Assembly (NCBI RefSeq): GCF_030028105.1
Contig: NC_092382.1
Span: 85,770,198 to 85,834,197, forward strand
Direction: 5' to 3'
From: Mobula birostris
Lineage: Eukaryota
DNA: 64,000 nucleotides
Positions within the stretch are counted from its first letter, which is position 1; each line of letters begins with the position of its first letter. The notes under the pieces were generated by a model. The model was not told where the DNA came from and did no database searches. It saw nothing but the letters and a program-made list of their open reading frames with translations. Shown here one piece after another: positions 19,223 to 58,513 of the stretch. A program made the position numbers and the translations under genes.

Positions 19223-21576
19223 GGAAAAATAAAAGACTAAGAATTGATATATATCATTTACAAAAATTAAAAGAGGATGGAGGTCTTGCTCTGCCTAATT
19301 TAAGAATGTATTATTGGGCTGTTAATTTGGAATTGAAAGCTGTGAAACAGTTTCATTTAACCTCATTATTAGGACCTTCTATACCTGTACAACTGGCCAA
19401 AATTGCTGAATTAAATTTATATCCTGTGATTAAGCAGTCATTATGAATTTGGTTCCAGTTTCGTAATTTTTTTTGATCTCAAAAAATTTAAACTTTTTAG
19501 TTTATTGAAATTATTTATTTAAACCTTCATTAAGAGATCCTACCTTTCTTCTTTGGAGGAATAAAGGAGTTTATTGCTTCATTCATCTGTTCCAAGATGG
19601 CCGATTGATGTCTTTTGAGAGTTTAGCAACTAAATACTCTCTCTTGTATTCACATTTCCTGCAATATCTTTAGGTCTGTCTCTTTTACAAGAATATTTAA
19701 GTAATTTTCCATATATACAGGATTCTGTCCTGTTATATTTTATTTCAAAAATGAGCCCTTTTGTGAAAGGTTTTATTGGGAAAATTTATAATTTATTGTT
19801 ACAACAGCATAATTACCCTTCACTTTAGATTAAGCAAGATTGGAAGACAGAGCTTAACATGACCTTGATAACAGAGGATTGATTGCGGATTTTGAAGTTG
19901 GTTAACTCTTCTTCGATCTGTGCCAGTCACTCTTTAATTCAATTTAAAATTGTACATCATTACTATTTGACAAAGGAGAGACTGTCAAAAATGTTTCCGA
20001 ATGTTGATAGTCAGTGTGATAGATGTAAAACTGAGACAGCTATATTGACACACATGTCTTGGTCGTGTTCTATATTGAAACATTTTTGGAAATCTTTTTT
20101 CTCGACAATTTCTAAAGTTTTAAAAATTAATTTATAACCTCATAAATTGACAGTTTTGTTTGGTAAAATCCCTCAATGTATTCAGGGTATTTCTCTATCG
20201 GACCAACATGTGACATGATTGGCCAGAAGGGCTATTTTGTTGAAATGGAAAGATGCTTCTGCTCCTACTTTGATAAAATGGTTCTCTCAGGTGATGCTAT
20301 GTCTTAGTTTGGAGAAAATCAGAAGTCAAACTTTTGATCCTCGATCTTTAATAATAATTTTGTTGATCTTTAATAATAATTAATAAAAAAGATTTTAAAA
20401 ATGAAAATCAGTTATTCCCTTTGCAAGGCCCTGACTTAATTACAGGCAGATGTTCATTCCTGTCCTTATCAGCGAGTAGTCCTCTCTGTACTCAAACGAG
20501 GGTACAATGTACAATGTTATCAGCTCTCAGTCTGTCTCTCTGCAAGCCGCAGAGAAATGCTAATGAGCCTGTCTTAGCTAACCGCTGAAGACAGAGTTTA
20601 CTTCAGTTCAAACATTCCTATTCAGTCCCAATTATTCTTTTAACCAGAGGTTACATAGGTTCAAAATGATTTTTTATATATATCCTCAATTTCTCAGGAG
20701 GGTTCAGGAGAAATATTTATGTCCAATATAGAAACTGGTGTTACCTGTGTGTATTGTGGCGATGCAGAAGTTGCTGGAGAATTTGCAAGTGGGAAGAAGT
20801 GGAGTGACATTTGGAAATCTGACTTATAGAAGCGCAATTTAGCAAGCAAAGTACATGTGGAAAATGTGCAAAAGCTCTGGTGAGAAAATCCTTCATTACC
20901 CGTTACAGGCCTGCTACATAGGTTGTGTGAGAGCGCAGATGAACTCGATCGATCCCAGAGAAGATCAAAGTTCTTATCGACAGCTGTTAAAATTAATCTC
21001 TCTATATAAAATTCACTGTGCACATGTTATCGCTGGGTATAAAAATGCACAGTACAAGATTTAGGTGCACACTGGTCATTACAAATTAGAGAGGTCAATG
21101 GTGGGAAGGTGGGGAGACCTCCAGTGTCCCTGATGCCCTCACAAGCAGGATGTGCATCCAGCTGCAGCTTGTAACCCTGCACTTTAAGGAGTTGCAACAT
21201 GAAATGGATGAATTCCGGATCATCCAGGAGTTGGAGGGGGTGATAGATATGACATGAAGAGAGGTGAGTTACACCTAAGGTGCAGGTCACTGGAAACTGG
21301 GTGAGAGTCAGGAAGGGGAAAGAGTTTAAATAGCCATCACAGAGCACCCTTGTTGCTATCCCGCACAACAGCAGGTGGACCACTTAGGAAACTGTTGGGG
21401 GGATTACCTGGCAGAGGAAAGTCAAAGGGATGAGAGGGGATTTGTTCGTTAGGGGAACAGAACAAAAGGGGAATAATATCCTAGTGGTAAGGATTGCTAG
21501 TGCTAGTGTGGGGGGAAGGGTGATGTGGTTAAAATAAGTTGAAGTGGGAATGGCAGAACAGTTAGTGGAGAGGGTG

Positions 21577-23563
21577 AATTGAATTGACTTTATTACATAC
21601 ATCCTTCACATGCACAAGGAGTAGAAATCTTTATGTTACGTCTCCGTCTAAATGTGCATTATGTAATTTATACTACAAACCCCATTTCCAGAAAAGTTGG
21701 AATATTTTCCAAAATACAATAGAATCAAAAATCTGTGATATGTTAATTCATGTGAGCCTTTATTTAACTGACAAAAGTATAAAGAAAAGATTTTCAATAG
21801 TTTTACTGACCAACTTAATTGTATTTTGTAAACATACACAAATTTAGAATTTGATGGCTGCAACACACTCAACAAAAGTTGGGACAGAGGCATGTTTACC
21901 ATTGTGTTACATCACCTTTCCTTTTAATAACACTTTTTAATCGTTTTAGAAATGAGGATACTAATTGTAGTAGATTTGCAATTGGAAATTTTGTCCATTC
22001 TTGCTTGATATAAGACTTCAGCTGCTCAGCAGTCCGTGGTCTCTGTTGTCTGATTCTCCTCTTCATCATGTGCCATACATTTTCAATAGGAGATAGATCT
22101 GGACTGGCAGCAGGCCAGTCAAGCACACGCACTCTGTGTCTACAAAGCCACGCTGTTGTAGCCCGTGCAGAATGTGGTCTGGCATTGTCCTGCTGAAATA
22201 AGCATGGATGTCCCGGGAAGAGACGTCGCCTTGATGGCAACATATGTCTCTCTAAAATCCTAATATACGCCTCAGAGTCAATGGTACCTTCACATACATG
22301 CAACTCACCCATGCCGTGGGCACTGATGCACCCCCATACCATCACAGATGCTGGCTTTTGCACCTTTTGTTGATAACAATCCCAATGGTCATTTTCACCT
22401 TTGGCACGGAGAACTCGAAGCCCGTTTTTTTCTGAAAACTAGCTGAAATGTGGACTCATCTGACCACAGCAGACTGTTCCACAGTCTTTCGGTCCATCTG
22501 AGATGAGCTCGGGCCCAGAGAACTCGCCGGCGTTTCTGCATAGAGTTGATGTATGGCTTCCTCCTTGCGTAATACAGTTTCAAGTTGCATTTCTGGATGC
22601 AGCGACGGACTGTGTTGAGTGACAATGGTTTTCCGAAGTACTCCCGAGCCCAGGTGGCTATAATTGTCACAGTAGCATGACTTTTCTGTGCACTTTTCAA
22701 TCTTATTTTAACTCTGTCCCAACTTTTGTTGAGTGTGTTGCAGCCATCAAATTCTAAATTTGTGTATATTTACAAAATACAATTAAGTTGATCAGTAAAA
22801 CTATTGAAAATCTTTTCTTTGTACTTTTGTCAGTTAAATAAAGGTTCACATAAATTAACATATCACAGATTTTTGTTTTTATTGCATTTTGGAAAATATC
22901 CCAACTTTTCTGGAAATGGGGTTTGTAATTTATAATAAATTGTTTGTACATAGGACAGTCAATATGACATAGAAATGCAATTGTATCAGCATGGATTAAT
23001 CAGTCTGATGGCCTGGTAGAAGATGATGTCCCAGAGCCTGTTGGTCTTTTTGCTGTGGTACCGTTTCCTGGATGGTAGCAGCAGGAACAGTTCGTGGTTG
23101 TGGTGAATTGGGTCCCCAATAACCTTCGGGCCCTTTTAACACACCTGTCTCTAAAAATGCCCTGAATAGTGGGAAGTTCAACAAATGCGCTGGGCTATCT
23201 GCACCACTCTCTGCCAGGTCCTGCGATTAAGAGAAGTACAGTTCCCATAAAAGGCAGTGATGCAGCCAGTCAGGATGCTGTCAATTGTGTTCCTGTAGAA
23301 AGTCCTTAGGATTTGGGGCACCATCCCAAACTTCAACTGTCTGAGGTGAAAGAGGTGCTGTTGTGTTTCTTTCACAACTCAACTGGTATGTACAGACCAT
23401 GTGATATCCTTGTTGATGTTTATGCCGAGGAACTTAAAGCTGTTCATACTCTCAACCCCAGATCCAGCGATGTCAATAGGAGTTAGCCTGTCTCCATTCC
23501 TCCGTCCACAATCAGCTCCTTTGTTTTTGTGACAATGAGGGAGACGTTGTTTTCTTGACACCA
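21577..23563 (-). mobile_element. Rex1-like LINE fragment (orthologue of 2330-3043 and 56705-57415), split by Tc1
   Basis: Same peptides (TIDSILTGCITAFYGNC) and the same tail. Confidence 0.8.
21676..22925 (-). mobile_element. Tc1-family DD34E transposon, IR/DR type, internally deleted
   Basis: TA TSD. ~210-bp TIRs (CAAACCCCATTTCCAG...) with inner and outer AAAAGTTGG repeats. WSDES, QQDNARPH and SPDLSPIE with 34 residues between D and E. N-terminus missing, frameshift at about 22400. Confidence 0.93.
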
Positions 23564-23564
23564 G

Positions 23565-25170
23565 TCAGATGTTGTTCAGACCTCAGATAGAGTCAGCAAT
23601 CAAATGTTTGAGCATGGTGCGATGAATGTGCTGAGCTGTGTATATCACAATGCAAGAAGCATCGTAAGAAAGCTAGATGAGCTCAGGACAGGGAATTATG
23701 ATATTGTAGCCATTATTGGAACTTGATTGCACCCAACAATCTGAGGGATGTAGAGGAACATGTTTGTAGAGAGATCGCAGACCATGCCAAGAAACAAAGA
23801 TTAATTCAGAAAGTGATTTTAACTTTCCATATATTGACTGAGCCTCCCATTCTGTAAAAGGACTAGATGGGGTAGAGTTTGTCAAGTGTGCCCTTAATCA
23901 ATACGTAGAATTCCTGACGTAGAAGTGTGCAATAAGCTATTAGGGAATGATCCAGGGCTGGTGACAGAAATTAGCGATAATAATGTCATGAAATTTAAAG
24001 TAAATAAGGAAAAAGAGAAGTCTGGTCCATGGGGTGAGATTCTAAATCGGAGAAAGGTCAATTTTGATGGTATCAGATTGTTTTGGACAGGCTGTTTTCT
24101 GCAAAGAAGCACTTGGTAAGTGGGAGGCCTTCACCAGGGAAATTTTGAATGTGTAGAGATTGTATGTGCCTGCCAAAATAAAAGTTGAAAGGTGACTGGT
24201 GCAGGGGACCTTGGTTTTCAAGAGATAATGAGGCCTGGGACATTTCTTTCCCAATGCCTCAGACTTTTGGGTACCCAGACTCATTAATGACTACAATATC
24301 ATAATTCCACGCCCTGAGCTCATATGACTTTTTTTTTAGTCATCTTCTATTAGCTTCTAAAAAATTCCCAATAGTTTTTGCTCTTTTGTTTCCCCTCTCT
24401 TTGGCTTTTATGTTGATGTTGGCTTCTCATTTCAGCCACGGTTGTGTCCTCCTGCCTTTCCAATGCTTCCACTTCTTTGGGATGTATCTATCACTCAGCT
24501 CCAGAATTGCTCCCAGAAACTCCAGCCACTGCTGCTCCTTTGTCACTCCGACCGTATCCCTTCCAAACAAGTTTGACCAGCTTCTCTGTCATAGAAACAT
24601 GGAGTAGTTCAGTACGGAAACAGCCTATTTGGCCCATCTAGTCAATGCCGAAAAACATTTAAGCTGTCTAATGCAACCACCTGCACCTGGACCATTGCCC
24701 TCCATACCCCTACCATCCAGGATCCCATCCAAACTTCTTCTAAATGGTGAAACCGAGCTCATATTCAACTCTTGTGCTGTCATCTCATTCCACACTCTCA
24801 CGACAATTTCAGTAAAGAGCTTTGCCAAATGTTCCCGTTAAATTTTCCCCTTCCCCACTTACGCATGACTTCTGGTTGTCATCCCACCCAAACTCAGTGG
24901 AAAAAGCTGCTTGCATTTACCCTATCTATACCCTCATAATTTTGTAGACTTCTAACAAATCCTCAAAATAATGTGTAATTTCCTTTTTTAGGTGTATAAG
25001 ATGATGAGGGGCATTGATCGTGTGGATAGCAAGAGGTTTTTTTCCCAGGGCTGAAATGGCTAACATGAGGGGGCATAGTTTTAAGGTGTTTGGAAATAGA
25101 TACCGAGGGGATGTCAGGGGTAAGTTTTTTACCCAGAGAGTGGTGGGTACATGCAATACACTGCCGGCTA
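23565..25170. mobile_element. Degraded CR1 fragments in the ZNF-B intron
   Basis: CR1 ORF2 and 3'-end peptides (FFTQRVVG, VRVWNEM). Inverted paralogue of 54330-56700. Confidence 0.7.
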
Positions 25171-25505
25171 TTTGTGTGTGTGTGTTTCAGTTACTGTGGG
25201 GCCAGGCACCCATGCAGCTCAGTGGGAACAGGGAATAATACCAATGGAGAGAGTCAAACTGAGCCAGGTCACAGATTGGAGATGGCAGAAATACCCCATT
25301 CCTAATGAGACAGGGAGACTATCAGAGAATTTGATGCTCATTCCAGATACCAGCACTGTGCCCAGTTAGAAGATGATTTCTCTCTCCAACTTGGGTTGAA
25401 CTTCACTGTAACAGTGTGATGTCAGATCACGCCTTAGCAACTGAAGTGATCTCATCTGAAATGTTGTTCTTCACCCATTGATGGATTTTGTAAATCTTTT
25501 CATAG

Positions 25506-25913
25506 GTTAAAAATGGCAAGGAATTTGTCTACGGGAATCTTGAGAACAACACGCCAGTTTTGCTGTCTCAGCCCAGATATTTAAGAAGTGGAGCAAGGGA
25601 TTCATTCAATCATCCTTCCTGCTCAGACTGTGGGGAGGGATTCACTCGATCATCTGACGGACTGGCACGCCCGTCATTTTACACATGGGGAGAGGCCGTT
25701 CATCTACTCAGACAGCAGGAATGGATTCACTCAGTCATCTCAACTGAAGGTACGTCAGCAAGTTCACACTGGATAAGGCCATTCCTCTGTTCTGTGTGTG
25801 AGAAGGGATTCAGTTGGTCATCCCGCCCATGGACACACCAGTCAGTTCACACTGGACAAAGGCTGGTCATCTGCTGAATTTGTGGGGAAGGATTCACTCG
25901 GTCATCCACCCTA
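25506..25913 (+). other. 5' part of the ZNF-B terminal exon with fossil fingers (probably 5' UTR)
   Basis: Acceptor cttttcatag|g at 25505. Three decayed fingers, frameshifts, and in-frame TGA at 25875-25877. Confidence 0.65.
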
Positions 25914-26717
25914 ATGGCTCACCAGCGAGTTCACACCGGGGAGCGGCCTTTCACCTGTTCAGACTGTGGTAAAGGATTCACTCGGTCATCCACCCTAATG
26001 GCACACCAGCGAGTTCACACCGGGGAGCGGCCGTTCATCTGTTCAGACTGTGGGAAAGGATTCACTCGGTCATCTGACCTAATGGCACACCAGCGAGTTC
26101 ACACCGGAGAGCGGCCGTTCACCTGCTCAGACTGTGGGAAGGGATTCACTCAGTCATCTACACTGAAGGAACATCAGCGAGTTCACACTGGAGAGAGGCC
26201 GTTCACTTGTTCAGACTGTGGGAAGGGATTCACTAGGTCATCTAAACTGAAGGTACATCAGAGACTTCACACCGGAGAGAGGCCATTCACCTGCTCAGAC
26301 TGCGGGAAGGGATTCACTCAGTCATCCGACGTACTGGTACACCAGTCAGTTCACACTGAGGAGAGGCCGTTCACCTGCTCAGACTGTGGGAAGGGATTCA
26401 CTCGGTCATCCGAACTACTGGTACACCAGTCAGTTCACTCTGGGGAGAAGCCATTCAACTGCTCAGTCTGTGGGAAGAGATTCAGTCGGTCATCCACTCT
26501 TCAGAGACACCAGCGAGTTCACACTGGGGAGAAGCCATTCAACTGCTCAGCCTGTGGGAAGAGATTCACTCAGTCATCCCATCTACTGAGTCATCAGCGA
26601 GTTCACACTGGGGAGAAACCGTTCACCTGCTCAGAATGTGGGAAGGGGTTCACTCGGTCATCCCAACTACTGGCACACCAGTCAGTTCATACGGGAGCAG
26701 CCGTTCACCTGCTGTGA
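25914..26717 (+). CDS. C2H2 zinc-finger protein ZNF-B (9 intact fingers, no effector domain)
   Basis: 267-aa ORF made of C-x2-C-x12-H-x3-H fingers with TGERPF linkers. Confidence 0.9.
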
Positions 26718-27156
26718 ATGTGGGAAAGGATTCATGTGGTCATCTCATCTGCAGAGACACCAGTGAGTTTACACCGGGACGAGGCCGTTCAGCTGTTCAG
26801 ACATTGGGAAGAGTTTCTCTCAGCCTTCTCAATCAAACGTGCATCATTGAGTTCACACTGGGAGAGACGGTTCACCTGCTGTGAATGTGGGAAGGGATTC
26901 CCTCAGTAATCTAACCTTGTGACACACTACCGGGTTCACACTGGGGAGAAAGTTTCAATAAGCTGCATGCTGGATATTTATCCATCACCGTTGCTGAATG
27001 CAATTTCGAGAGTGACTGTCGGTGCTGAACTCTGCAATTATTGCTGCTGCTCACCACACCCAGTTCTGCACCCTGGTCACTGGACATGGGAGGAGTTTCT
27101 TCTGCTGCACATTCACCTTTAATGGGACTGGAGTTTAATATTCTGGATCTGAGACA

Positions 27157-27162
27157 AATAAA
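27157..27162 (+). promoter_or_regulatory. Putative poly(A) signal of ZNF-B
   Basis: AATAAA downstream of the decayed 3' fingers, conserved at 49621-49626 in ZNF-C. Confidence 0.55.
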
Positions 27163-27534
27163 TCAGTTCTATTTTGAACTCTGTCTCCGGTACTTAGTGA
27201 ATTTATAACACACCTAGTGTACAGTAGACAGTCAACTCAGGCCGGCTGGACCCTACCAGTGATTCTGTTCCATGACAGTCCTTTTGAATTCTCCCCTGTT
27301 GTTCACCTCTCGCTCTGCCTGTGGTGATGGGTTCCAAATAGTCTCCACTCTGTGGGTGAAGAGGTTTCCCTTGAATTCTCTGCAGACTGAAGAAGTCAAG
27401 TTGACTGCAATTCTATCTGACATGCCCTTCTCCCCTGAAATCTCTGGGCTGAGGAAGAATGACATTGGTAGTTAACCTCCTCATTCATGGCTGATTTCCA
27501 CATTATGGGTCATGTTCCCTGCTTCTGAAGAGTT

Positions 27535-28545
27535 AACATAGAAGCATAGAAAACCTACAGCAGAATAGAGTCCCTTCAGCCCACAAAGTTGTGCTGAACA
27601 TGTCCCTACCTCAGAAATTACTCGGGTTATCTATAGCCCTCTATTTTTTCTGAGCTCCATGTACCGATCCAAAAGTCTCTTAAGTTATCCTGCCCCACTG
27701 TTGACGGCAGCCAATTCCACTCGCTCACCACTCTCTGTGGAAAACACTTACCCCTGACATCTCTGCTGCACCTTCTCCCCAGCACCTTAAACCTGTGCCC
27801 TGTTGTGGCAGCCATTTCAGCCCTGGGAAAAAGCCTCTGACTATCCACACGATCAATGCCTCTCATCATCTTATACACCTCTATCAGGTCACCTCTCATC
27901 CTCCGTCTCTCCAAGGAGAAAAGGCCAAGTTCACTCAACCTGTTTTCATAGGCATGCTCCCCAATCCAGGCAACATCCTTGTAAATCTCCTCTGCACTCT
28001 TTCTATGGTTTCCACACCCTTCCTGTAGTGAGGCGACCAGAACTGAGCACAGTACTCCAAGTGGGTTCTGAATAGGGTCCTATATATCTGCAACATTCCC
28101 TCCCGGCTCGTAACTTCAATTCCACAATTGATGATGGTCAATACACCGTACACCTTCTTAACCACAGGGTCAACCTGCGCAGCTGCTTTGAGTGTTCTAT
28201 CGACTCAGACCCCAAGATTCCTCTGATCCTCCACACTGCCAGGAGTCTTAAATTAATGCTACATTCTGCCATCATATTTGACCTACCAAAAGGAACCACT
28301 TCACATTTATCTGGGTTGAACTCCATCTGCCACTTCTCAGCCCAGTTTTGCATCCTATCAATGTCCTGCTGTAACCTCTGACAGCCGTCCACACTATCCA
28401 CAACACCCCCAACCTTTGTGTCATCAGCAAACTTACTAACCCATCCCTCTACTTCCTCATCTAGGAAATTTATAAAAAAAGTCACTAAGAGTAAGGGTCC
28501 CAGAACAGATCCCTGTGGCCCACCACTGGTCACCAGCCTCCTGGT
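27535..28545 (-). mobile_element. CR1 LINE RT and 3' end
   Basis: PQGSVLGPLL, FADD, LEYCAQFWSP, RGDLIEVYK, and tail. Confidence 0.88.
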
Positions 28546-29865: not shown

Positions 29866-30768
29866 AGATTGGAGGTGTAGTAGACAGTGAGGAAGGTTTT
29901 CAGAGCCTGCAGAGGGACTTGGACCAGCTGGGAAAATGGGCTGAAAAATGGCAGATGGAGTTTAATACAGACAAGTGTGAGGTATTGCACGTTGGAAGGA
30001 CAAACCAACGTAGAACATACAAGGTAAATGGTAGGGCACTGAGGAGTGCAGTAGAACAGAGGGATCTGGGAATACAGATACAAAATTCCCTAAAAGTGGC
30101 GTCACAAGTAGATAGGGTCGTAAAGAGAGCTTTTGGTACATTGGCCTTTATTAATCAAAGTATTGAGTATAAGAGCTGGAATGTTATGATGAGGTTGTAT
30201 AAGGCATTGGTGAGGCTGAATCTGAAGTATTGTGTTCAGTTTTGGTCACCAAATTACAGGAAGGATATAAGTAAGGTTGAAAGAGTGCAGAGAAGGTCTA
30301 CAAGCATGTTGTCAGGACTTGAGAAACTCAGTTACAGAGAAAGGTTGAATAGGTTAGGACTTTATTCCCTGGAGCGTAGAAGAATGAGGGGAGATTTGAA
30401 AAAGGTATATAAAATTATGATGGGTATAGATAGAGTGAATGCAAGCAGGCTTTTTCCACTGAGGCAAGGGGAGAGAAAAAAACAGAGGACATGGGTTAAG
30501 GGTGAGGGGGGGAAAGATTAAAGGGAACATTAGGGGGGGATTCTTCACACAGAGAGTGGTGGGAGTATGGAATGAGCTGCCAGATGAGGTGGTAAATGCG
30601 GGTTCTTTTTTAACATTTAAGAATAAATTGGACAGATACATGGATGGGAGGTGTATGGAGGGATATGGTCCATGTGCAGGTCAGTGGGACTAGGCAGAAA
30701 ATGGTTCGGCACAGCCAAGAAGGGCCAAAAGGCCTGTTTCTGTGATGTAGTTTCTATGGTTTCTATGA
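29866..30768 (+). mobile_element. Younger 5'-truncated CR1 LINE
   Basis: 200-aa RT C-terminal ORF (29919-30521) and (TTTCTATG)n tail. Confidence 0.9.
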
Positions 30769-34620: not shown

Positions 34621-34739
34621 AAAACGTACATTCAACTCAGTTAGATAGATAGATAGACACTTCACTGATCCTAAAATAAATTACAAGGAAGATTTAGAAT
34701 TCCAATAATTTCCATATGTCTCAATTTAAAATGAACGGC

Positions 34740-46920: not shown

Positions 46921-46979
46921 GTATCATTGTATCATCATGGTCATAAGACAGTCACAAGATACCCATGAAGTATGTAACC

Positions 46980-49250
46980 CCTGTAATATCATGGGCTCAT
47001 AACTTGTTAACCAGCCTCATGTGTGGCACCTTGTCAAACACCCTCTGAAAGTGCAGGTGGACATCATCAACCGATTCTCCTTTGTCTATCTTGCTATTAC
47101 CACTTCAATAAATTCAAAGAATTTCAACACACTGTTCAGGCAAGATTTTCCCTTGAGGCAAACATGCTGAAGGCCGATTTTATTATGTGCCTCAAAGTGC
47201 CCTGAGAACACATCCCGAACAACCGACACTAATACCTACCCAACCAATGAGGTCAGACTAACTGTCCTAAAACTTCCGTTCTTCTATTTCTCTCCCTTCT
47301 TGAATAGCAGAGTGATATTTCCAAATTTGGAGTCTTCCGCAACCATATCAGACTTCATGGATTCTGAAACATCATTACTAATAGCTCCACAATCTCTTCG
47401 GCCGCCTCTTGCAAAAATCTGGGATGTACACCATCTGGTCCAGGTATCTATTTACCTTCAGACCTTTTCTGTTTCCCAGGAACCTTCTCTCGAGTAATGG
47501 CAACTTCACACACTTCTGACCATAGACATCTGGACTTCCACCTTTCCGTTGGTTGCTTCCACAATGAAGACTGATATGAAATACTTATTCAGTGCACCAG
47601 CCATCTCCTTGTCCCCTATTACTACTCACCCCACCCTCCCCAGGCATCGGTTCCCCTGGTTCGATATCCACTCTTGCCTCTCTTTTACACTTTATGTATC
47701 TGAAGAAACATTTGGTATCATCTTTGATGTAATTAGCTAGCTTCATGTTCCATCCTTCATTTCTTAATTACTTTTTTAGTTGTCTCTTGTTGGTATAGAA
47801 AAGTTTCCCAATCATCTAACTTCCCACCAGTTTTTGCTCTGTTATCTGCCCTCCCTTTAGCTTTTACGTTGGCTTTGCCTTCTCATCAGCCGTGGTTGTG
47901 TGATGATGTCTTTAGAATAGTTCTTCCTTTTTGGAACGTATATATCCTGTGTCTTCAGAATTGCTTCCCGTAATTACAGCCATTGATGCTTTGTCGTCAT
48001 CCCTGCCAGTGTTTTTCTCCCTATCAAATTTGGCCAGTTCCTCTCTCATGCCTCTGTAATTGTCCTTATTCCACAGTTGTACTGATACATCTCACTTTAG
48101 CTTCTCCCTCTCAAATTTCAGGATGAATTCAATTATATTATGATCGCTTTCCCCTCAGGGTTCTTTTACCTTAGGTGATCTCATTCCGTTCATTGCACAA
48201 CACCAAATCCAGAAATGCTGATTCCCAGCTGGGCACAACCAGGAGGTCGTTGCCCAGCTGTGTGCCTCAGTTATCTGTTCGAACCCTTACTCTTCGTGAT
48301 TTTTAGAAGTAACCTGGATGAGGAATTGAAGGGATGGGTTAGTAAGTTTGCTGATGACACAGAGGTTGGGGGTGTTGTGGAGAGTGTGGAGGCCTGTCAA
48401 AGGTTACAGTGGGACATTGATAGGATGCAAAACTGGGCTGAGAAGTGGCAGATGGAGTTCAACCCAGACAAGTGTGAAATGGTTCATTTTGGTAGGTCAA
48501 ATATGATGACAGAATGTAGTATCAATGGTAAGACTCTTGGCATTGTGGAGGATCAGAGGGATCTTGGGGTCCAAGTCAATAGGACGCTCAAAGCAGCTGC
48601 ACAGGTGGACTCTGTGGTTAAGAAGGCATACGGTGTATTGGCCTTCATCAATCGTGGAATTGAATTTCAGAGCCGAGAGGTAATGTTGCAGCTATATTGG
48701 ACCTTGGTCAAAACCCACTTGGAGTACTGTGCTCAGTTCTGGTCACCTCACTACAGGAAGGATGTGGAAACAAAAGAAAGGGTGCTGAGGAGATTTACAG
48801 GGATGTCGCCTGGATTGGGGAGCATGCCTTATGAAAACAGGTTGACTGAGCTCGGCCTTTTCTCCTCAGAGTGAAGGAAGATGAGAGGTGACCTGATAGA
48901 GGTGTAAAAGATGATGAGAGCCATTGATTGTGTGGATAGTCATGGGCTTTTCCCCAGGCCTGAAATGGCTGCCACAAGAGGGCACAGGGAGTAGGTACAA
49001 AGCTTGGGAGTCAGTACAGAGGAGACGTTGGGGGTAAGGTTTGTACGCAGAGAGTGGTGAGTGCATGAAATGGGCTGCCGGCAACAGTGGGGGAGGCTGA
49101 CACTATAGGGTATTTTAAGAGACTTTTGGATTGGTACATGGAGCTTAGAAACAGTTATGGGTAACCCTAGTAATTTCTAAGGTAGGGGTATGTTTGGCAC
49201 AACTTTGTAGGCTGAAGGGCCTGTATTGTGCTGTACGTTATTCTATGTAA
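46980..49250. mobile_element. CR1 fragments (mirror of 27535-29805)
   Basis: 48215-48874 RT peptide FADD...LEYCAQFWSP. Confidence 0.85.
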
Positions 49251-49697
49251 ACACTTCAGAAGCAGGGAAAATGACCCATAATGTGGAAATGAGCCATGAA
49301 TAAGGAGGTTAACTACCAATGTCATTCTTCCTCAGTCCAGAGATTAGAGGGGTGAAGAACATCTCAGACAGAACTGCAGTCAACTTGACTTCTTCAGTCT
49401 GCAGAAAATTCAAGGGGAACCTCTTCACCCACAGAGTGGAGACTTTTGGAACCCATCACCACAGGGAGAGCGAGAGGGGAACAACAGGGGAGGATTGAAA
49501 AGGACTGTCATGGAACAGAATCACTGGCAGGGTCCAGCCGGCCTGAGTTGACTCTTTACTGTACACAGGGTGTGTTATAAATTCACTAAGTACCAGAGAC
49601 AGAGTTTACAATAGAACTGATTTATTTGTCTCAGATCCAGAATATTAAACTCCAGTGTGTAGCAGAAGAAACTCCTCCCATGCCCAGTGACCAGGGT

Positions 49698-50042
49698 TTC
49701 AGGTTTCAGGTTTATTATCACCGGCATTTTAAGTGAAATTTGTTGATTTAGCAGCAGCAGTTCAATGCAATACATATTTTGGCATAGATAATAATATAAT
49801 ACATAAATTAAAACATAGTAAATAAACAAGTAAATCAATTATGCATAATGAATACATTATTAAAATGTGTAAAAACACAAATGCTGCATATTAAAAAAGT
49901 GTCCAAAGCTTTCAAAGTCCATTCAGGAATCGGATGGCAGAAGGGAAGAAGCTGTTCCTGAATCGCTGAGTGTGTGCCTTCAGGCTTCTGTATCTCCCAC
50001 CTGATGGCAACAGTGAGAAAAGGGCATGTCCTGGTTGCTGAT
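49698..50042 (-). mobile_element. Rex1-like LINE 3' end inserted in the ZNF-C 3' UTR
   Basis: PGHALFSLLPSGGRYRSL...SFFPSAIRFLN, with AATAAA and a (CCTGAAA)n tail. The empty site is seen in ZNF-B at about 27070. Confidence 0.85.
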
Positions 50043-50264
50043 GGTGCAGAACTGGGTGTGGTGACCAGCAGCAATAATTGCAGAGTTCAGCACCAACAGT
50101 CACTCTCGAAATTGCATTCAGCAACGGTGATGGACAAATATACGGTATGCAGCTTATTGAAACTTCCTCCCCAGTGTGAACCCTGTAGTGTGTCACAAGT
50201 TTAGTTTACTGAGCAAATCCCTTCCAACATTCACAGCAGTGTATGGCCTTTCCCCAGTGAGAAC

Positions 50265-51119
50265 TCAATGATGCACATTTGGTGGAGATGGCTGAGAGAA
50301 TCTCTTCCCAATATCTGAGCAGGTGAACGTCCTCGACCCGGTGTGAACTCGCTGGTGTCTCTGTAGGCTGGATGACCGAGAGAATCTCTTCCCACAGACT
50401 GAGCAGGTGAACGGCTTCTCCCCAGTGTGAACTCGCTGGTGTCTCTGTAGGTGGGATGATTGAGTGAATCCCTCCCCACAGTCTGAGCATGTGAACGGCC
50501 TCTCCCCAGTGTGAACTCGCTGATGTACCTTCAGTTGAGATGACTGAGTGAATCCCTTCCCACAGTGTGAGCAGGTGAACAGCCTCTCTCCGGTGTGAAC
50601 TCTCTGATGTACCTTCAGTTCATATGAGCAAGTGAATCCCTTCCCACAGTCTGAGCAGGTGAACAGCTTCTCCCCAGTGTGAACTCGCTGATGACTCTGT
50701 AGGTGTGATGACCGAGTGAATCTCTTCCCACAGTCTGAGCAGGTGAACGGCTTCTCCCCAGTGTGAACTCGCTGATGACTCTGTAGCTGGGATGATCGAG
50801 TGAATCCCTTCCCACAGTTTGAGCAGGTGAACGGCCTCTCTCCAGTGTGAACTCGCTGATGTACCTTCAGATTAGATGAGCAAAAGAATCCCTTCCCACA
50901 TTCTAAGCAGGTGAACGGCCACTCCCCTGTGTGAACTGACTTGTGTACCAGTAGTTTGGATGACCGAGTGAATCCCTTCCCACAGTCTGAGCAGGTGAAC
51001 GGCCTCTCTCCGGTGTGAACTCTCTGATGTCCCTTCAGTTTAGATGAGTACCTGAATCCCTTCCCGCAGTCTGGGCAGGTGAACGGCCGCTCCTCGGTGT
51101 GAACTGACTGGTGAGCCAT
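50265..51119 (-). CDS. C2H2 zinc-finger protein ZNF-C (9 intact fingers plus 1 degenerate, no effector domain)
   Basis: 284-aa ORF of canonical fingers. Confidence 0.9.
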
Positions 51120-51527
51120 CAGGTCAGATGACCGAGTGAATCCTTCCCCACAAATTCAGCAGATGACCAGCCTCTGCCCAGTGTGAACTGACTGGTGTGT
51201 CCACAGGTGGGAAGACCGACTGAATCCCTTCTCACACACAGAACAGGTGAATGGCCTTGTCCCAGTGTGAACTTGCTGATATTCCGTCAGTTGAGATGAG
51301 GGACTGAATCCATGCCCAGTGTCTGAGCAGATGAATGGGATCTCTCCTGTGTGAGGTGACAGGCGTGCCAGTCAGTCAGATGAGCGAGTGAATCCCTCCC
51401 CACAGTCTGAGTAGGAAGGATGATCGAGTGAATCTCTTACTCCAGTTCTTAAATATCTGGACAGAGACAGAAAAACTGGCGTGTTGTGTTCGAGATTCCT
51501 GTAGATAGATTCCTTGTCGTTTTTAAC
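51120..51527 (-). other. 5' part of the ZNF-C terminal exon with fossil fingers
   Basis: Acceptor at 51528-51529. In-frame decayed fingers with two TGA stops (one at 51156-51158). Confidence 0.65.
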
Positions 51528-51689
51528 CTGTAAAAACATTTACAAAATCCATCAGTGGGTGAAGGACAACTTTCACACCAGATCACTTTAGTCACCAAGG
51601 TGTGATCTGACATCACACTGTCACAGTGAGGGTCAACGCAAGTTGGAGAAATCATCTTCTAACTTCTGTCCCTATCTAACTGTGATACT

Positions 51690-52905
51690 ACGTTCAGTGA
51701 AATATAGACCTGTATTCCCAGATCCCCTTTCTTCTGCAACACTCCTCAGTGCCCTACCAGTCACTGAGTACAGCCTATGTCCTATCAAAAAGCAACGCCC
51801 CACACTTGCCTGCATTAAATTCCATTTTTTGGTTTCACAACCCATTTTTGCAGCAGGTCTAGATTGCACTACAAGCCATGATAGTCTTCCTCGCTGTCCA
51901 CTACACCACCAATCTTGGTGCCATCCACAAATTTGCTGATCCAGTGAACCACACTGTCATCCAGATTACTGATATAGATGACAAACAACAACAGACCCAA
52001 CACTGATCCCTGTGGCACACTACTAGTCACAGGCTTCCAGTCAGAGAGGCAACCATCTGCTACCACAGTCTGGCTTCTCCCAAAGACAGTGTCTCATCCA
52101 ATTTACTATCTCATCTTGAATGCTGAGTGACTGAACCTTCTTGACCAACCTTCCATATGAGACTCTGTCAAGTGCCTTGCTAAAGTCCATGTAGACAACA
52201 TCCACTGCCTTGCCTTCATCCACTTTCCTGATAACTTCCTTGAGAGACTCTATAAGATTGGTTAGCCATGACCTACCATGCACAAAGCCATGCTGTCTAT
52301 CCTTAATCAGTCCACATCTATCCAAATACTTATATATCTGGTTCCTGCACATACATTCCAATAACTTTCCCAGTACTGATGTCAAGCGCACCAACATACA
52401 ATTTCTTAGTTTACTTTCAGAGCCTGCCTTGAACAGCGGAACAACATTGGCTGTCCTCCAATCCTCCAGTATGTCACCTGTCACTGAGGATGATTTATAT
52501 ATCTGTGCTTGGGCCCCGACAATTTCTTCACTTGTCTTCCACAGGGTCCCAGGGAACAACTTGTCAGGCCCTGGGGATTTATCCATGGTAATTTGCCTTA
52601 AGACAGGAAACACCTCCACCTCTGTAATCTGTACAGGGTCCATGAAGTTGATGCTGCTTTGCCTCACTTCTATAGACTGTGTCCATCTCCGGTGTAAATA
52701 CGGATGCAAAAAAAATCTCCCCCATCTATTTTGTCTCCTCATATGGATTACCATTCTGATCTTCCAGAGGATTATTTTTTTCCCTTGCAACGTTTTTGCT
52801 CTTAACATGTCTGCAGAATCCCTGAGGAGTCTCCTTCACCTTGTCTGCTGGGGCAACCTCATGCCATCTTTTATTTCTTTCATAAGGGTTCACTTGAATT
52901 TCCTG
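51690..52905 (-). mobile_element. CR1 ORF2 (RT) fragment
   Basis: KSPGPDK, QHGFVHGRS, DVVYMDFSKALDRV, VPQGSVLG. Confidence 0.88.
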
Positions 52906-52914
52906 TACTTCATA

Positions 52915-53093
52915 GGAAGGAAGGAAGGAACGTCGACTCAGACCATGAGAGGCTTGCATCAGGCATTTTCATGCCTTACAAGGTGCAGGTTGGAAGTCTG
53001 TGTGGGGCGCCACTCCTCGCACAGACACTGGAGCAATGTGTGGTTAAGTGCCTTGCTCAAGGACACAAACACGCTGCCACAGCTGAGGCTCAA
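52915..53093 (-). mobile_element. SINE fragment (CORE/Meta-like central block, (TTCC)n tail)
   Basis: Minus-strand GTGTCCTTGAGCAAGGCACTTAACC block. TSD-like acttcata at 52907 and 53094. Confidence 0.6.
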
Positions 53094-53169
53094 ACTTCAT
53101 AAGTATCCCATTTATTCCTATTTTCCTGTACCTGGTATGCACCTCCTTTTTATTGATCGGGGAGATGAA

Positions 53170-55495
53170 AGCCAAAGGGGTGATAGAGCTGCATGGTGGG
53201 AGGTGGGGGAAGGGGGTTAAACTAAAGTTGCAGGGGGAATGGGAACCTGAATAACAGAACAGATAGTGGAGGGGTTGTGGAGACAGCTGTTGTTCTGTCC
53301 TCAGACAAAGTCAGGAATGAAAACGTTGAGCATGGTGCAGTGAATATGCTCAATCCTGTATATTTCAATACAAGGAGCAGTGTAGGAAAGGCGGATGTGT
53401 TCAGGGCATGGATCAACACCTGGAGTTATGACACTAGGATCTGGCAACTGTGGTCTGGGACAGGCTGCTTTGTGGCAAAGGTGTGCTTGGTAAGTGAGAA
53501 GCCTTCAAAGTGAAATTTTGAAAGTACAAAGGGGGTATGTGCTTGTCAGAATAAAAGGTAAAGATCGAAACTGTAGGGAATCTTGGTTTTCAAGAGATAT
53601 TAAGACCCTGGTGAAGCACAAAACAGAGTTGCATAACAGGGATAGGCAGGTAGGTTCTTATGGAGTATAAGAAAAGCAAGAGAACACATAAGAAATAAAT
53701 CAAAATGTCTAAAAGAAGGCATGAGTTTGCCCTCACAAAAAAGATGTAGGATAATCCTAAGGGGTTCTAGAGATACATTAAGATCAAAAGTATTGCAAGG
53801 GACAAAGTTGGTCCTCTGGAAGACCAGAATGGCAATCCGTGTTTGGAACCAAAGTAGATGCGGAAGATCATCTCTATTTACTCAGGAGATGGGCACAGCA
53901 TGTATCGAAGTGTGGGAAAGCGGCATTAACATCGTGGACCCTGTACAGATTAAAGAAGAGGGGATGTTCGCTATCCTGAGGCAGATTAGGGTGGATAAAT
54001 CTCCAGGGCATGACAAGGCGCTCCCTTGGACCCTACGGGAGGTAAGTACAGAAATTGTCGGGGCCCCGAGCAGAGATAATTAAATCATCCTTGGTGACAG
54101 GTGGAGGAACCAGAGGACTGGAGGACAGCCAATGTTGTTTCGCTGTTTAACGTAGAACATAGAAATCTACAACATATTACAGAGTCTTCAGGCCACAAAG
54201 TTGTGCCGACCATGTAACCTACTCTAGAAACTGCCTAGAATTTCCCTAACGCAAAGCCCTCTGTTTTCCTAAGCTCCATGTACCTATCGAAGAGTCTCTT
54301 AAAAGACCCTATTGTATCCGTCTCTACCACCATTGCTGGCAGTGCATTCCACTTACCCACTACTCTCTGTGTGAAAAACTTACCTCTGACATCCCCTTGG
54401 TACACATTTTCAAGCACCTTAAAACTGTGCCCCCTCGCGTTAGCCATTTCAGCCCTGGGAAAAAAGTCTCTGGCTATCCACATGATCAATGCCCCTCATC
54501 ATCTTATACACGTAAAAAAGGCTCTGAACATAAACAAGGAAATTATACATTGCTTTGAGTGTTTGTTCAAAGTATACAGAATTGCGAGGGTAAATGCAAG
54601 CAGGCTTTTTCCACTGCGGTTGGGTGGGACTATAACCAGTGGTCATGGGTAAGTGGTGAAGGTGAAAATTTAAGGGGAATATGTGGGAAAACTCTTCACT
54701 GAAATGGTTGTGACAGTGTGGAATGAGATGCCAGCACAAGTGGTTCATGCCAGATCAATTTCATCATTTAAGAAAAGCTGGGATAAGTACCTTGATGGTA
54801 GGGGTATGGAGGGTGATGGTTCCGGTGCAGGTGGTTGCATTAGACAGCTTAAATGTTTTCATCATTGTCTAGAGGGGACAAATGGCCTGTTTCTGCACAG
54901 AATTTCTCCATGTTTCTATGACAGAGAAGCTGGCCAAACTTGACTGGAAGGGGAAATTGGTAGGAATAATGATGGAGCAGCAATAGCTGGAGTTTCTGGG
55001 AGCAACTCGGGAGCTGAGTGATAGATACATCCCAAAGAAGTGGAAGCATTGGAAAGGCAGGAGGACACAACCGTGGCTGAAATGAGAAGACAAAGCCAAC
55101 GTCAACATAAAAGCCAAAGAGAGGGCAAATATTACAACAAAAACTACTGGAAAGTTTTTAAAACCAACAGAAGACAACTGAAAAAAAAATCAGATATGCT
55201 CGGGGCATTGATTTATGATTTGCAGTCATTAATGAGTCTTGGTAGCACCCAACAGTCCGAGGCATTTAGAGGAACAAGATCTCCGGGGCCTCAATATCTC
55301 TTGAAAACCAAGGATCCCTGCACCAGTTACCTTTCAACTTTTAATTTGGCACGCTCATATAAACTCTACACATTCAATATTCGACTTCTGAAGGCCTCCC
55401 ACTTACCAAGTACACCTTTGACAGAAAACAGCCTGTCCCAAACCACACTTGTCAGATCCTTTCTGATAACATCAAAATTGACCTTTGTGCAATTT
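53170..55495. mobile_element. Nested degraded CR1 fragments
   Basis: CR1 ORF1/ORF2 junction, linker and 3'-end peptides in both orientations. Confidence 0.7.
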
Positions 55496-56207
55496 AGACC
55501 ATAAGACAAAGGAGCAGAAGTCGGCCATTCGGCCCATCGAGTCTGCTCCGCCATTTTATCATGAGTTGATCCATTCTCCTATTTAGTCCCACTCCCCTGC
55601 CTTCTCACCATAACCTTTGATGCCCTGGCTACTCAGATACCTATCAATCTCTGCCTTAAATACACCCAATGACTTGGCCTCCCCTGCTGCCCGTGGCAAC
55701 AAATTCCATAGATTCACCACCCTCTGACTAAAAAAATTTCTTCGCATTTCTGTTCTGAAAGGGCACCCTTCAATCCTTAAGTCATGCCCTCTCATACTAG
55801 ACTCCCCCATCATGGGAAACAACTTTGCCACATCCACTCTGTCCATGCCTTTTAACATTTGAAATATTTCTATGAGGCCTCCCCTCATTCTTCTAAACTC
55901 CAAGGAATACAGTCCAAGAGCGGACAAACGTTCCTCATATGTTAACCCTCTCATTCCCGGAATCATTCTAGTGAATCTTCTCTGTACTCTCTCCAATGTC
56001 AGCACATCCTTTCTTAAATAAGGAGACCCAAACTGCCCACAATACTCCAAGTGAGGTCTCACCAGCGCCTTATAGAGCCTCAACATCACATCCCTGCTCC
56101 TATACTCTATTCCTCTAGAAATGAATGCCAACATTGCATTCGCCTTCTTCACTACTGACTCAACCTGCAGGTTAACTTTAAGGGAATCCTGTACGAGGAC
56201 TCCCAAG
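55496..56207 (-). mobile_element. CR1 3' fragment of another subfamily, private to this copy
   Basis: Intact 207-aa RT C-terminus (55583-56206). Empty site at about 1935 and about 24045. Confidence 0.88.
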
Positions 56208-56704
56208 AATCTCAGCCTGTGGTCCAGACCTCTCTTTTTCCATATTGACTTGGAATCTCATGGCATTATGATCACCAGATACAAAGTGTTCCCATACACT
56301 AATTTTTGTCACTAGCCCTGGATCATTTCCTAATAGCTTTTTGCACACATCTACATTGGGAATTCTACATGTTGATTAAGGACACATTTGACAAACTCTA
56401 CCCCAGATAGTCCTTTTCCAGTATGGTCGACCCAGTCAATATTTGGAAAGTTAAAATCACTTACTATATCAACATATGTTTCTTGGCATAGTCTGCAATC
56501 TCTCTACAAATTTGTTCCTCTAAATCCCTCAGACTGTTAGATGCAACCAAGTCCCAGTAAGGGCTACAATATCATGATTCCATGTCCTGAGCTCATCTGC
56601 CTTTCCTACGATGCTTCTTGCATTCTGAAAAACACAGCTCTGCACATTCATCACACCATGCTCAACCTTTTGATTGCTGACTTTGTCTGAACAACATCTG
56701 TCTG

Positions 56705-57415
56705 GGTGTCAAGAAAGCAACCTCTCCCTCAATGTCACAAAAAAATAAGGAACTGGTTGTGGACTACAGAAGGAATGGAGACATCAATGGATCTGGAGTT
56801 GAGAGAGGAAACAGCTTTAAGTTCCTCGGCATGAACATCACCAAGGATCTCATCTGGTCTGTGCACACCGGCTGTGTGGTATGTGGCTGTGTACCTCTTC
56901 CACCTCAGAAGCTTGAAGAAGTTTGGGATGGGGTCCCAAATCCTAAGAATTTTCCACAGGGACACAATTGAGAGCATCCTGACTGGTTGCATCACTGCCT
57001 GGTATGGGATCTGTACTTCCCTCAATCGCAGGACTCTGAAGAGAGTGGTGCAGGCAGCCCAGCGCATCTGTAGATGCGAACTTTCCACTCTTTAGGACAT
57101 TTACAAAGACAGGTGCATATAAAGGCCCGAAAGATCATTGGGGATCCGAGTCACCCCAACCACAAACTGTTCCAGCTGCTACCCTCAGGAAATGGTACTG
57201 CAGCATGAAAGCCAGGCCCAACAGGCTCCTGGACAGCTACTTCCACCAGGCCATCAGACTGATTAATTCCTACTGATGCAATTGTATTTCTATGTTATAA
57301 TGACTGTACTATTTATAATAGATTACTAGAAATTACACATTGCACATTTAGATGGAGAATTAATGTAAAGATTTTTACTCCTCGTGTATATTAAGGATAT
57401 TAGTCATTTCAATTC
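56705..57415 (+). mobile_element. Rex1-like LINE fragment (paralogue of 2330-3043)
   Basis: TIESILTGCITAWYG and the same tail. Confidence 0.8.
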
Positions 57416-58513
57416 ACCCTCTCCACCCATCTGTTCTGCCATTCTGGCTCCAATCCCGCCTGCAACTTTAATTTAACCACCACCCCCTGCCACACACTAG
57501 CACTAGCTAGCAAGCCTCACCACTAGTATATTAGATCTCTGCTAGTTTTAATTCCCTAACTAACAAATCCTCTATCAGCCCTTTGAAATTCCTCTGCTGG
57601 GTAATCCCCCCTAACAGTTCCGAAAGTGGTCCACCTGTTGTTGTGTGGGATAGCAACAAGAGTACTCAGTGATGGCTATTTAACCTCATTCCCCTTCCTG
57701 ACTCTCTCTCACCCAGTTTCCTGTGTCCTGCACCTTTGGTGTAACTCAGTTCTCTTCATGTCATATCCATCACCCCCTCCAACTCCCAAATGATCTGGAA
57801 TTCATCCATTTCCAGCTCCAACTCCCTAACGTGCAGGATTACAAGCTGCAGCTGGATGCACACCTAGCAGGTGAGGGTGTCATGGACACTTGAAGTCTCC
57901 CCACCTTCCCACCAATGTCCCATCTAATTTGTAATGAGCCGTGTGCCAAAAAATCTTGTGCTGTGCAATTTTTACCCAGTGACAACAATATGTGCACACT
58001 GAACTTTAAATAGAGGTACTCATTTTAACAGCTAGTAAATCACTGTCAATAAGAACTTTGATATCCTCTGGGTTTGATCAAGTTCATCTGCATTCTCACA
58101 CAACCTACCTGTAGAGGGTTAGGAAGAATTTTCTCACTCCAGCTTTTGCACACCATCCATATCTGATTTGCTTGCTAAATGACACTTTTAAAAGTCAGAT
58201 TTCCAAATATCACTCCACTTCCTCCCACTTGCAAACTCTCCAGCAACTTTTGCATCGCCACAATAAACACAGTTTCTGTATCGTACATAAATATTTCCCC
58301 TGAACCCTCCCCCCAGGTGACTGACGGTGCTGAGCTTATTGATGGCAATGCCAATGAATATGAAGGGAAAGGCAGTAGTCTGTCCGGCACATTTGTGATG
58401 TGAAAGCTACTTGTTGCCCAGGACAAAAGTGTTTGTCATAATTATGTACCCAGAGAGAGTGGGTCAAAACGTGTTCTCACGAGTAGAAAAGTCCAGAACA
58501 AGAGCAGGTAGAA

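Follow-up and report, generated by a model that had tools for sequence, protein, structure and literature searches.

Several described systems come close to parts of the locus presented here; all statements on them refer to the accessible parts of the cited texts. In mouse, clusters of KRAB zinc finger protein genes (KZFP or KRAB-ZNF) grow by segmental duplication of DNA that carries transposable elements (TEs) (PMC12575710; review PMC13709654). In fishes, zinc finger (ZNF) clusters without KRAB and with a TE-repressing role are known (PMC10547256; PMC11753138), and the KRAB families are reported to be lost in cartilaginous fishes (PMC8455134). Kilobase-scale gene conversion between loci is common in human duplications (PMC10172114), and the avian IGH loci contain direct and inverted copies of one unit together with conversion (10.64898/2026.09.05.749481). 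Here, we describe a stretch of 64,000 nucleotides from Mobula birostris (contig NC_092382.1, positions 85,770,198 to 85,834,197 of the forward strand), referred to as the window. It contains one C2H2 ZNF gene unit four times, ZNF-A, ZNF-C and ZNF-D on the minus strand and ZNF-B on the plus strand, and the units B and C form a large inverted pair. We consider it likely that this is a tandem C2H2 cluster in which the inverted B/C pair is an old duplicate, and that the downstream arms of the pair have been re-homogenised in patches by gene conversion. In a literature search (titles and abstract beginnings, with most subscription papers outside its coverage), none of the papers listed described ray ZNF clusters or their small RNAs.

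The inverted pair and the identity mosaic of its inner arms

Self-BLAST and global alignment reveal that 20697-36364 is similar, as reverse complement and in colinear order, to 58310-40443. The left arm is 15,668 bp and the right arm 17,868 bp long, the spacer 4,078 bp, and the total span 37,614 bp; the window contains no N letters. In the global alignment the arms are 89.2% identical (12,576 of 14,106 aligned columns, i.e., 1,530 columns differ). The top high-scoring segment pair of the inner arms has 12,706 bits, while the best scores against five of five shuffled right arms were 26.5-32.8 bits. The three parts are:

20697..36364, plus strand: left arm, with the ZNF-B intron and coding exon and 9.2 kb of TE-rich downstream DNA (self-BLAST, global alignment)
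36365..40442, no strand: spacer, mostly TE remnants (from the sequence; family labels provisional)
40443..58310, minus strand: right arm, with the ZNF-C intron, coding exon and downstream DNA (self-BLAST, global alignment)

The extra length of the right arm comes from blocks with no counterpart in the left arm (49698-50043, 51665-54331 and 55499-56206). The outer parts of the arms are about 83-85% identical, which is no closer than either is to a direct copy of the unit at 1-5076. The inner 9.3 kb of each arm lies 3' of the first AATAAA after the finger arrays (27157; 49621-49626), i.e., downstream of the predicted genes and not in their introns. It consists mostly of remnants of long interspersed elements (LINEs; reverse-transcriptase and endonuclease pieces), a repeat resembling a long terminal repeat (LTR) with a 32-bp tandem array, and an exon-like stretch. 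We provisionally take these LINEs to be CR1-like and the repeat to be LTR-like; neither label comes from a repeat library.

The divergence of the inner arms is far from even. Their 718 mismatches in 9,147 columns have a dispersion of 7.1, compared with a maximum of 1.6 in 2,000 permutations, and the longest identical run is 230 against a permutation maximum of 177. A hidden Markov model (HMM) with three states, the rates of which were set by hand, divides both arms into 11 segments, five at 12.3-17.4% divergence and six at 1.2-7.1%. The HMM patches, given in left-arm coordinates, are:

26916..27409, plus strand: intermediate patch over the predicted 3' untranslated region (UTR), pairs with 50199-49375, 24 differences in 477 columns, 5.0%
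29429..30955, plus strand: high-identity patch 1, 2.0% (31 differences over 1,527 columns), partner 47355-45828
30956..33820, plus strand: intermediate patches, 6.1% and 7.1%, over the LTR-like repeat, flanking the 32-bp tandem array (17.4% divergent)
33821..34625, plus strand: high-identity patch 2, 1.2% (10 differences over 805 columns), partner 42979-42160, lies on a LINE fragment that has decayed
34922..35583, plus strand: high-identity patch 3, 3.7% (24 differences over 653 columns), partner 41869-41213, contains the exon-like 190 bp at 35131-35320

The left edge of patch 1 lies inside a single LINE match found by tblastn (29153-29635). Divergence drops from 12.3% to 2.0% across this edge (Fisher p 2e-33), which excludes a newer insertion shared by both arms. 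Patches 1 and 2 cover frameshifted LINE remnants, and selection on a protein is therefore implausible there. Divergence at non-CpG sites and the density of indels both drop together with the low-divergence segments, and for this reason CpG decay was rejected as the cause of the mosaic. The low-divergence tracts are thus clustered beyond what mutation rate or selection would give, which is the pattern left by interlocus conversion. From the alignments, gene conversion between the paralogous arms is likely the source of the mosaic, and the several levels of divergence suggest several conversion events.

We suggest the following history. The ZNF unit would have been duplicated several times while the copies were still alike, once in inverted orientation. 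Private TE insertions, the loss of the 5' end of ZNF-B and the shuffling of fingers could then have followed, and tracts of 0.5-1.6 kb would have been copied on several occasions, by non-allelic recombination, between the two adjacent downstream arms. When inverted arms cross over, the segment between them is turned around and not lost, so a pair in this orientation would be able to persist.

Gene units, spacer and neighbouring repeats

The gene units and the elements that belong to them are:

1..5076, minus strand: ZNF-A, direct copy of the C unit, runs off the left edge of the window (self-BLAST, sequence prediction)
5350..5490, plus strand: CpG-island unit resembling a first exon, GTGAGT donor at 5491, head-to-head with ZNF-A (CpG observed/expected 0.87, sequence)
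21661..22940, minus strand: Tc1-type DNA transposon private to the left arm (Pfam DDE_3 and HTH_Tnp_Tc3_2)
25506..27162, plus strand: ZNF-B terminal exon (exon limits predicted from sequence)
49621..51527, minus strand: ZNF-C terminal exon (exon limits predicted from sequence)
58750..59150, minus strand: ZNF-C CpG island and predicted non-coding exon 1, GTAAGA donor at 58927 (CpG observed/expected 0.97; outside the arm)
59638..60263, minus strand: ZNF-D, decayed fourth unit, of which the 3' end and broken fingers remain; identity to the other units 65-71% (sequence comparison)

The direct copy at 1-5076 matches about 50.6-59.1 kb in seven colinear blocks at 77-90% identity (self-BLAST). In a three-way alignment of A, B and C (3,200 of 3,318 ungapped columns, in 16 windows), there are 536 differences between A and B (16.8%), 503 between A and C (15.7%) and 486 between B and C (15.2%). 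The inverted B/C pair is hardly closer to each other than either is to A; it is an old duplicate and not a young palindrome. In addition, a 277-bp piece of a block that is present in C and absent in B is kept in A. The private Tc1-type element has terminal inverted repeats of 229 bp at 93.9% identity and TA at both ends. The order of the fingers is also shuffled, as the positional partner is the best match for only one of nine fingers in B versus C and for one of seven in both A versus C and A versus B; finger B6 best matches C2, at 97%. The dN/dS ratio is 0.35-0.48 in the finger frame versus 0.62-0.95 at positions -1, 2, 3 and 6, rough values since with shuffled fingers the positional pairs are not true counterparts. 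Four units in 64 kb with both common and private TE pieces make this a cluster of paralogues grown by segmental duplication.

A first-pass annotation of the window, made from the sequence alone, had described a palindrome of about 38 kb with two convergent ZNF genes, a direct copy at 1-5070 of about 50.5-59.1 kb, and growth of the family by direct and inverted segmental duplication together with TEs. The reverse-complement colinear arms were located correctly within a few bases, the two convergent C2H2 arrays are present, and the self dot-plot that it proposed, run as self-BLAST, recovered the inverted as well as the direct colinear blocks. The growth of the family is supported by these copies, by the three-way alignment and by the common and private TEs. 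With arms of 15.7 and 17.9 kb, both longer than 10 kb, around a spacer of 4.1 kb, the layout is that of a palindrome, but the term overstates the case: the outer parts are not young, and the identity of more than 99% known from sex-chromosome palindromes is not reached, neither overall nor in the best segment (98.8%). It had also proposed that whole gene units were copied with their intronic TEs. Several intronic TE pieces are indeed common and several are private; however, ZNF-B lacks exon 1 and the CpG island, and the copied TEs are not all intronic, since the 9.3-kb inner arms sit beyond the first AATAAA of each gene. The mosaic of the inner arms and the fourth unit, ZNF-D, had been overlooked.

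The CpG islands of A and C have observed/expected ratios of 0.91 and 0.97, versus 0.39 for the window; in both units a GTAAGA donor leads into a TE-filled intron, which is followed by a single terminal exon. In ZNF-A, the exon 1 donor is predicted at 4892 and the acceptor at 958, and the open reading frame (ORF) 675-1 runs off the window and has seven intact fingers. The ZNF-B exon follows an AG acceptor at 25505 and contains decayed fingers, an in-frame TGA and the ORF 25878-26717 (first Met at 25914, 267 amino acids, nine intact fingers), with the first AATAAA at 27157. In ZNF-C, the AG acceptor is at 51528, followed by an in-frame TGA as in ZNF-B, the ORF 51155-50265 (first Met at 51119, 284 amino acids, nine intact fingers) and AATAAA at 49626-49621; a further AATAAA lies at 49711 within a private insertion. 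The Pfam families zf-C2H2 and zf-H2C2_2 are above the cut-off in all three ORFs, and the fingers are spaced at 28 amino acids with TGE(K/R)P-type linkers, i.e., with a period of 84 bp. No KRAB is among the 25 best Pfam families shown for each ORF (of 34, 40 and 26), and an exon outside the model could hold one. The spliced model of ZNF-C contains no ORF longer than 22 amino acids ahead of the finger ORF, as the predicted exon 1 gives short ORFs only.

The in-frame TGA lies within a Cys-X-X-Cys pair, after the decayed fingers, and is common to A (678-676), B (25875-25877) and C (51158-51156). In B and C, a Met follows 12 codons past the TGA, while A has ACG at this position and no Met in its 225 visible codons. 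A protein search, in which 8,000 candidates were scored, gave 120 listed matches; the highest identity among them (76%) is to P0054 from the stingray Hemitrygon akajei, and this protein starts at the Met that matches the first Met of B and C. The layout therefore looks family-wide, with old fingers turned into 5' UTR and a finger-only product. The predicted products are finger-only proteins of 267-284 amino acids, from genes with a non-coding exon 1 and one coding exon, and the transcripts likely end a few hundred bases past the fingers.

The homology of ZNF-B ends at 20697 (corresponding to 4246 in A and 58310 in C), short of exon 1 and the CpG island that A and C have in common. In 5101-20700 no homologue of the A/C exon 1 was found, with local scores of 22-26 compared with shuffled maxima of 26-33 (A versus C scores 184). 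Judged by its sequence, ZNF-B has lost its own first exon. The CpG-island unit at 5350-5490 is unrelated to exon 1 of ZNF-A and points toward ZNF-B; it may be a substitute promoter, a candidate that would act across an intron of about 20 kb filled with TE remnants.

The first feature of the spacer, at 36592-37941, is an element bounded by terminal inverted repeats. There are also the 3' ends of LINEs (37013-37351 and 38138-38470) and an LTR-like repeat at about 38901-40100. The terminal inverted repeats of this first element are short; it has a frame of 143 amino acids (37286-37717) with no Pfam match, and the LINE 3' end at 37013-37351 is inserted into it. It may resemble a Chapaev-type DNA transposon. 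Decayed reading frames at 35640-36592 and 37941-38140 run from the tip of the left arm into the spacer, and the right copy stops at 40443. They may resemble an R4/Dong-type LINE, a label confirmed neither by the Atlas nor by two protein searches (none of 11 candidates in one, none of 27 in the other). If they do belong to such a LINE, the right junction is the breakpoint. A direct repeat of 29 bases is found at 36350-36378 and 40220-40248, with 24 of the 29 positions alike (15 exact). One copy overlaps the end of the left arm and the other lies about 200 bases before the start of the right arm, an arrangement consistent with the inversion of a short segment, of about 210 bases, at the right junction.

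The exon-like stretch of 190 bp, at 35131-35320 and at about 41480-41670, lies between pyrimidine and purine tracts and has splice-like signals on both strands. Its plus-strand frame, the one of six frames that was searched, has a stop in the right arm. Compared with 1.84 billion proteins, it gave two weak matches, one to a PAS histidine kinase and one to a repetitive protein that has no name; both were ascribed to chance. The LTR-like repeats form a family with internal tandem arrays at 32736-33154, 43598-44096 and 18507-18920, with a fourth relative in the spacer; the two arms have 13.1 and 15.8 copies of 32-bp units, and the third copy has units of 26 and 68 bp. Other TE remnants with Pfam matches are found at 7576-10826 (minus strand), 11191-13066 (plus strand), 14703-20341 and 60708-61229 (minus strand). 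They include broken LTR-retrotransposon pol (RNase H, integrase), a LINE with an open endonuclease frame of 430 amino acids, L1-like pieces and GIY-YIG (Penelope-like). Rfam gave no matches and ARAGORN no genes in the window.

Public sequencing contigs and rival explanations

Contigs of four of 24 listed sequencing runs were placed on 32000-51990, a range outside which ZNF-A, ZNF-B and both first exons fall. The figures for the DNA run X1 refer to 32 listed of about 400,000 contig pieces. A piece of 356 bases (36258-36613) bridges the left junction with two other letters. Right-arm pieces cover 5-20 sites that distinguish the arms and have 0-2 other letters; left-arm pieces cover 30-66 such sites and have 2-4. 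These arm-specific pieces support both arms as real. An artefact of assembly or polishing, producing the inversion or the near-identical patches, is highly improbable to us. It would draw on the right junction (40442/40443), which no piece among the 32 listed bridges, and on the patches at 1-2%, where reads of one arm could have polished the other. However, apart from the X1 pieces, the arms differ at more than a tenth of their columns and carry kb-sized private insertions, one of them with intact Tc1 ends (private insertions had been raised earlier as an argument against a mis-assembly), and even the best patch still holds its 10 differences.

The depth of the contigs hints at more copies. 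In X1, contigs without the insertion at 49.7 kb of ZNF-C have a depth of 3,232, compared with 294-435 for five listed pieces of the left tip and spacer. This hints at many more paralogues, although depth is uncalibrated here, with no single-copy control, and on that account we rejected absolute copy numbers derived from it. The five X1 pieces, which do not look like repeats and cover 35636-38928, compare with depths of 23-49 for three comparable pieces in run X6, which carries a second species label; either X1 was sequenced to very high depth, or the X1 organism has multiple copies of the entire unit. In X6, a piece at 35046-35311 has a depth of 220, compared with 18-114 for its other seven listed pieces, and the exon-like stretch differs there by 4 letters in 266, at this raised depth.

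Two further runs are labelled 'RNA? (probably DNA)' (X12) and 'RNA?' (X17), i.e., their RNA status is an automatic guess. We regard them as RNA-like since, relative to DNA, exon sites are enriched in them about 25-60-fold over the one listed intron site. At three exon sites, the ratio of RNA-like to DNA depth ranges from 0.08 to 0.26, compared with 0.003-0.0045 for the intron; all such ratios are family-wide, unstranded sums in which DNA carry-over is possible. The terminal exon of ZNF-C has an RNA-like signal at the level of the family, and a 194-base piece in X17, identical to the private 3' insertion of ZNF-C and at depth 41, hints that ZNF-C itself is expressed. The ratio is 0.05-0.42 up to 204 nt past the ZNF-C AATAAA and at most 0.01, like in the intron, at five listed repeat sites further into the arm. 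A drop of RNA depth just past this AATAAA was considered as evidence of cleavage and rejected, as the DNA depth drops there too. Parts with zero cover (41338-42004 in X12; 35880 and 36406 in X17) were left out of the evidence.

Several observations weigh against an old pair re-homogenised by arm-to-arm conversion and silent between its genes. The least-converted inner segment, at 12.3%, is less divergent than the outer non-coding sequence, at 15.9% (p 0.0005), and part of the inner arm may thus have been duplicated more recently. The conversion donor could also be a third copy at another place; direction, donor and date would call for an outgroup copy or a second genome, and one metagenome scan for an outgroup copy gave 0 matches. 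Three listed right-arm pieces of X1 have depths of 701-1,124, compared with the lower values of the five left-tip and spacer pieces, and X1 may be the source of the assembly and then not independent of it. Finally, the X17 ratio is 0.08-0.11 in two bins with the exon-like stretch, 0.021 at 40671-41337 and 0.046 at 38671, versus 0.0045 in the intron (the ratio of the exon-like stretch is exon-like in X17 but not in X12). Near-identical pieces at depth 2-14 are found in the spacer and arms in both RNA-like runs, and some transcription inside the arms and spacer is possible.

The raised depths of the right-arm pieces, of the X6 piece and of the insertion-less joint, together with the lower baseline divergence of the inner arms, would also fit a mosaic built from other copies of a many-copy unit elsewhere, or a younger nested duplication of the inner arms, instead of arm-to-arm conversion. 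In the accessible text, blocks of 97-99% in a mouse palindrome are attributed to recent local duplication over conversion (PMC13688818), and human conversion hotspots favour high-copy duplications (PMC10172114). We nevertheless regard this as unlikely, as the patches are exactly syntenic in both arms, at least four divergence levels alternate over 9 kb, beyond one nested duplication, and third-party donors would have to hit both arms every time. Purifying selection on the patches, as functional non-coding elements or as exons of an unannotated transcript, is an idea to which we give hardly any credence. The few changes of the exon-like stretch of patch 3 in X6 and its ratio in X17 speak for it, and the 3' UTR patch could be constrained too. 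However, patches 1 and 2, the most similar ones, are decayed LINE fragments that are more identical than the ZNF coding exons (85%), and the exon-like frame that was searched has a stop in the right arm and gave only the two weak matches. Conversion between the arms remains the explanation that we prefer.

The other proposal of the first-pass annotation was that transcripts running on from ZNF-B or ZNF-C would fold into a hairpin several kb long, built from LINE (CR1), LTR-like and ZNF sequence, and would become a source of small RNAs directed at the same TEs as the ZNF proteins, a scenario that we find quite improbable. The inner arms would indeed pair if a transcript crossed the spacer: they contain 99 perfectly complementary runs of at least 21 nt (4,806 bases), nine of which are at least 100 nt, i.e., the extended complementarity needed for long double-stranded RNA (dsRNA). 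Precedent exists in mouse, where an inverted LTR repeat in the intron of a long non-coding RNA gives 21-23-nt RNAs (PMC6944382, in the part available). The low-depth pieces in spacer and arms and the X17 ratios at four non-repeat places (0.02-0.11) would also be in line with it. However, the mRNAs of ZNF-B and ZNF-C are same-sense copies with no mutual pairing, and a transcript would have to continue for 13.3 kb or more beyond the first AATAAA before a hairpin could form. On the way it would pass 12 AATAAA hexamers in the case of B and 7 in that of C, putative signals the counts of which are about chance level. ZNF-B has neither first exon nor CpG island. The outer arms, which bear the ZNF sequence, hold only 21 complementary runs of at least 21 nt (649 bases), and the duplex would not reach ZNF coding sequence until about 23 kb beyond the first hexamer, in a part where arm identity is about 85% and the fingers do not line up. 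The contig pieces are short and unstranded and none spans the stretch, which speaks neither for nor against one transcript over both arms. The low ratios at the five repeat sites are a weak hint against it, and so are the letter changes. They were counted coarsely with A-to-I editing in view, a weak test since contigs drop rare variants. For the two RNA-like runs, the ratio (A>G+T>C)/(G>A+C>T) comes to 0.91 and 1.06, compared with 0.85 and 0.88 for DNA runs, with no clear A>G or T>C excess. Inverted TE pieces are already present inside the introns of B and C, so a potential for dsRNA is not special to this layout. It can also be speculated that conversion keeps the TE-filled arms alike while a tissue-restricted transcript, from read-through of C or from the exon-like unit seen in X17, spans the spacer. 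Its hairpin would then give rise to small RNAs that target CR1-like and LTR-like elements, and the locus would provide defences of both kinds, protein and RNA; we hold this to be very improbable. Most likely, the palindrome is a by-product of cluster turnover and not an RNA-producing device.

Comparison with known systems

The locus brings together known processes in a little-studied lineage, i.e., growth of a ZNF cluster by direct and inverted duplication, shuffling of fingers and patchy conversion, the last of which would homogenise the flanks while the finger arrays diverge. A finger-only gene family with a common upstream stop codon may merit a genome-wide description. If it were true, the hairpin RNA would unite protein- and RNA-based TE defence in one locus, while the review treats them, in the text available, as different in kind (PMC13709654). 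The mouse-oocyte loci for endogenous small interfering RNAs are similar in that TE-derived inverted repeats are able to form dsRNA. However, in the mouse both repeats lie in one transcribed intron and the small RNAs have been sequenced (PMC6944382), while here the arms are 4 kb apart and lie beyond the predicted gene ends.

As in young mouse KRAB-ZNF clusters, we find tandem C2H2 genes with one finger-coding 3' exon, segmental duplications carrying TEs, private later insertions and partial duplicates, and an inversion reported in one mouse strain resembles the inverted pair (PMC12575710; PMC13709654). The ray cluster differs from them in that no KRAB is matched among the listed families, exon 1 is predicted to be non-coding, the copies are 15-17% divergent and not near-identical, and the passengers are mostly LINEs. 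In the parts of the text covered, the mouse account contains no kb-scale conversion patches (PMC12575710; PMC13709654). The FiNZ-ZNF genes of cyprinids, found on zebrafish 4q, are similar in their KRAB-less, TE-rich expansion, in their two-exon layout and, as far as the rough dN/dS values from shuffled fingers can tell, in that the DNA-contact codons change more than the finger frame (PMC10547256). However, FiNZ genes have an acidic domain of 28 amino acids on a coding first exon, reported as unique to cyprinids (PMC10547256), while the main ORF here starts inside the finger array, after the TGA common to A, B and C. TE repression has been shown for FiNZ-ZNF (PMC10547256); for the present genes it would be a candidate role.

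In its arms, the locus resembles segmental duplications and sex-chromosome palindromes, where kb-scale tracts of raised identity occur between paralogous blocks and inverted arms surround a spacer (PMC10172114; PMC8981503). Sex-chromosome palindromes exceed 99% identity (PMC8981503), while the pair here has 89% overall and the genes themselves have escaped homogenisation. Similar to it is also the mouse autosomal palindromic duplication SD12A1, the inverted arms of which have likewise decayed, flank a spacer and retain a few blocks of 97-99% identity (PMC13688818). SD12A1 is of megabase scale, with a uniform identity of 93%, and in the accessible text no conversion is inferred for it (PMC13688818). 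The ray pair, in contrast, spans 38 kb and has sharp patch edges inside single elements.

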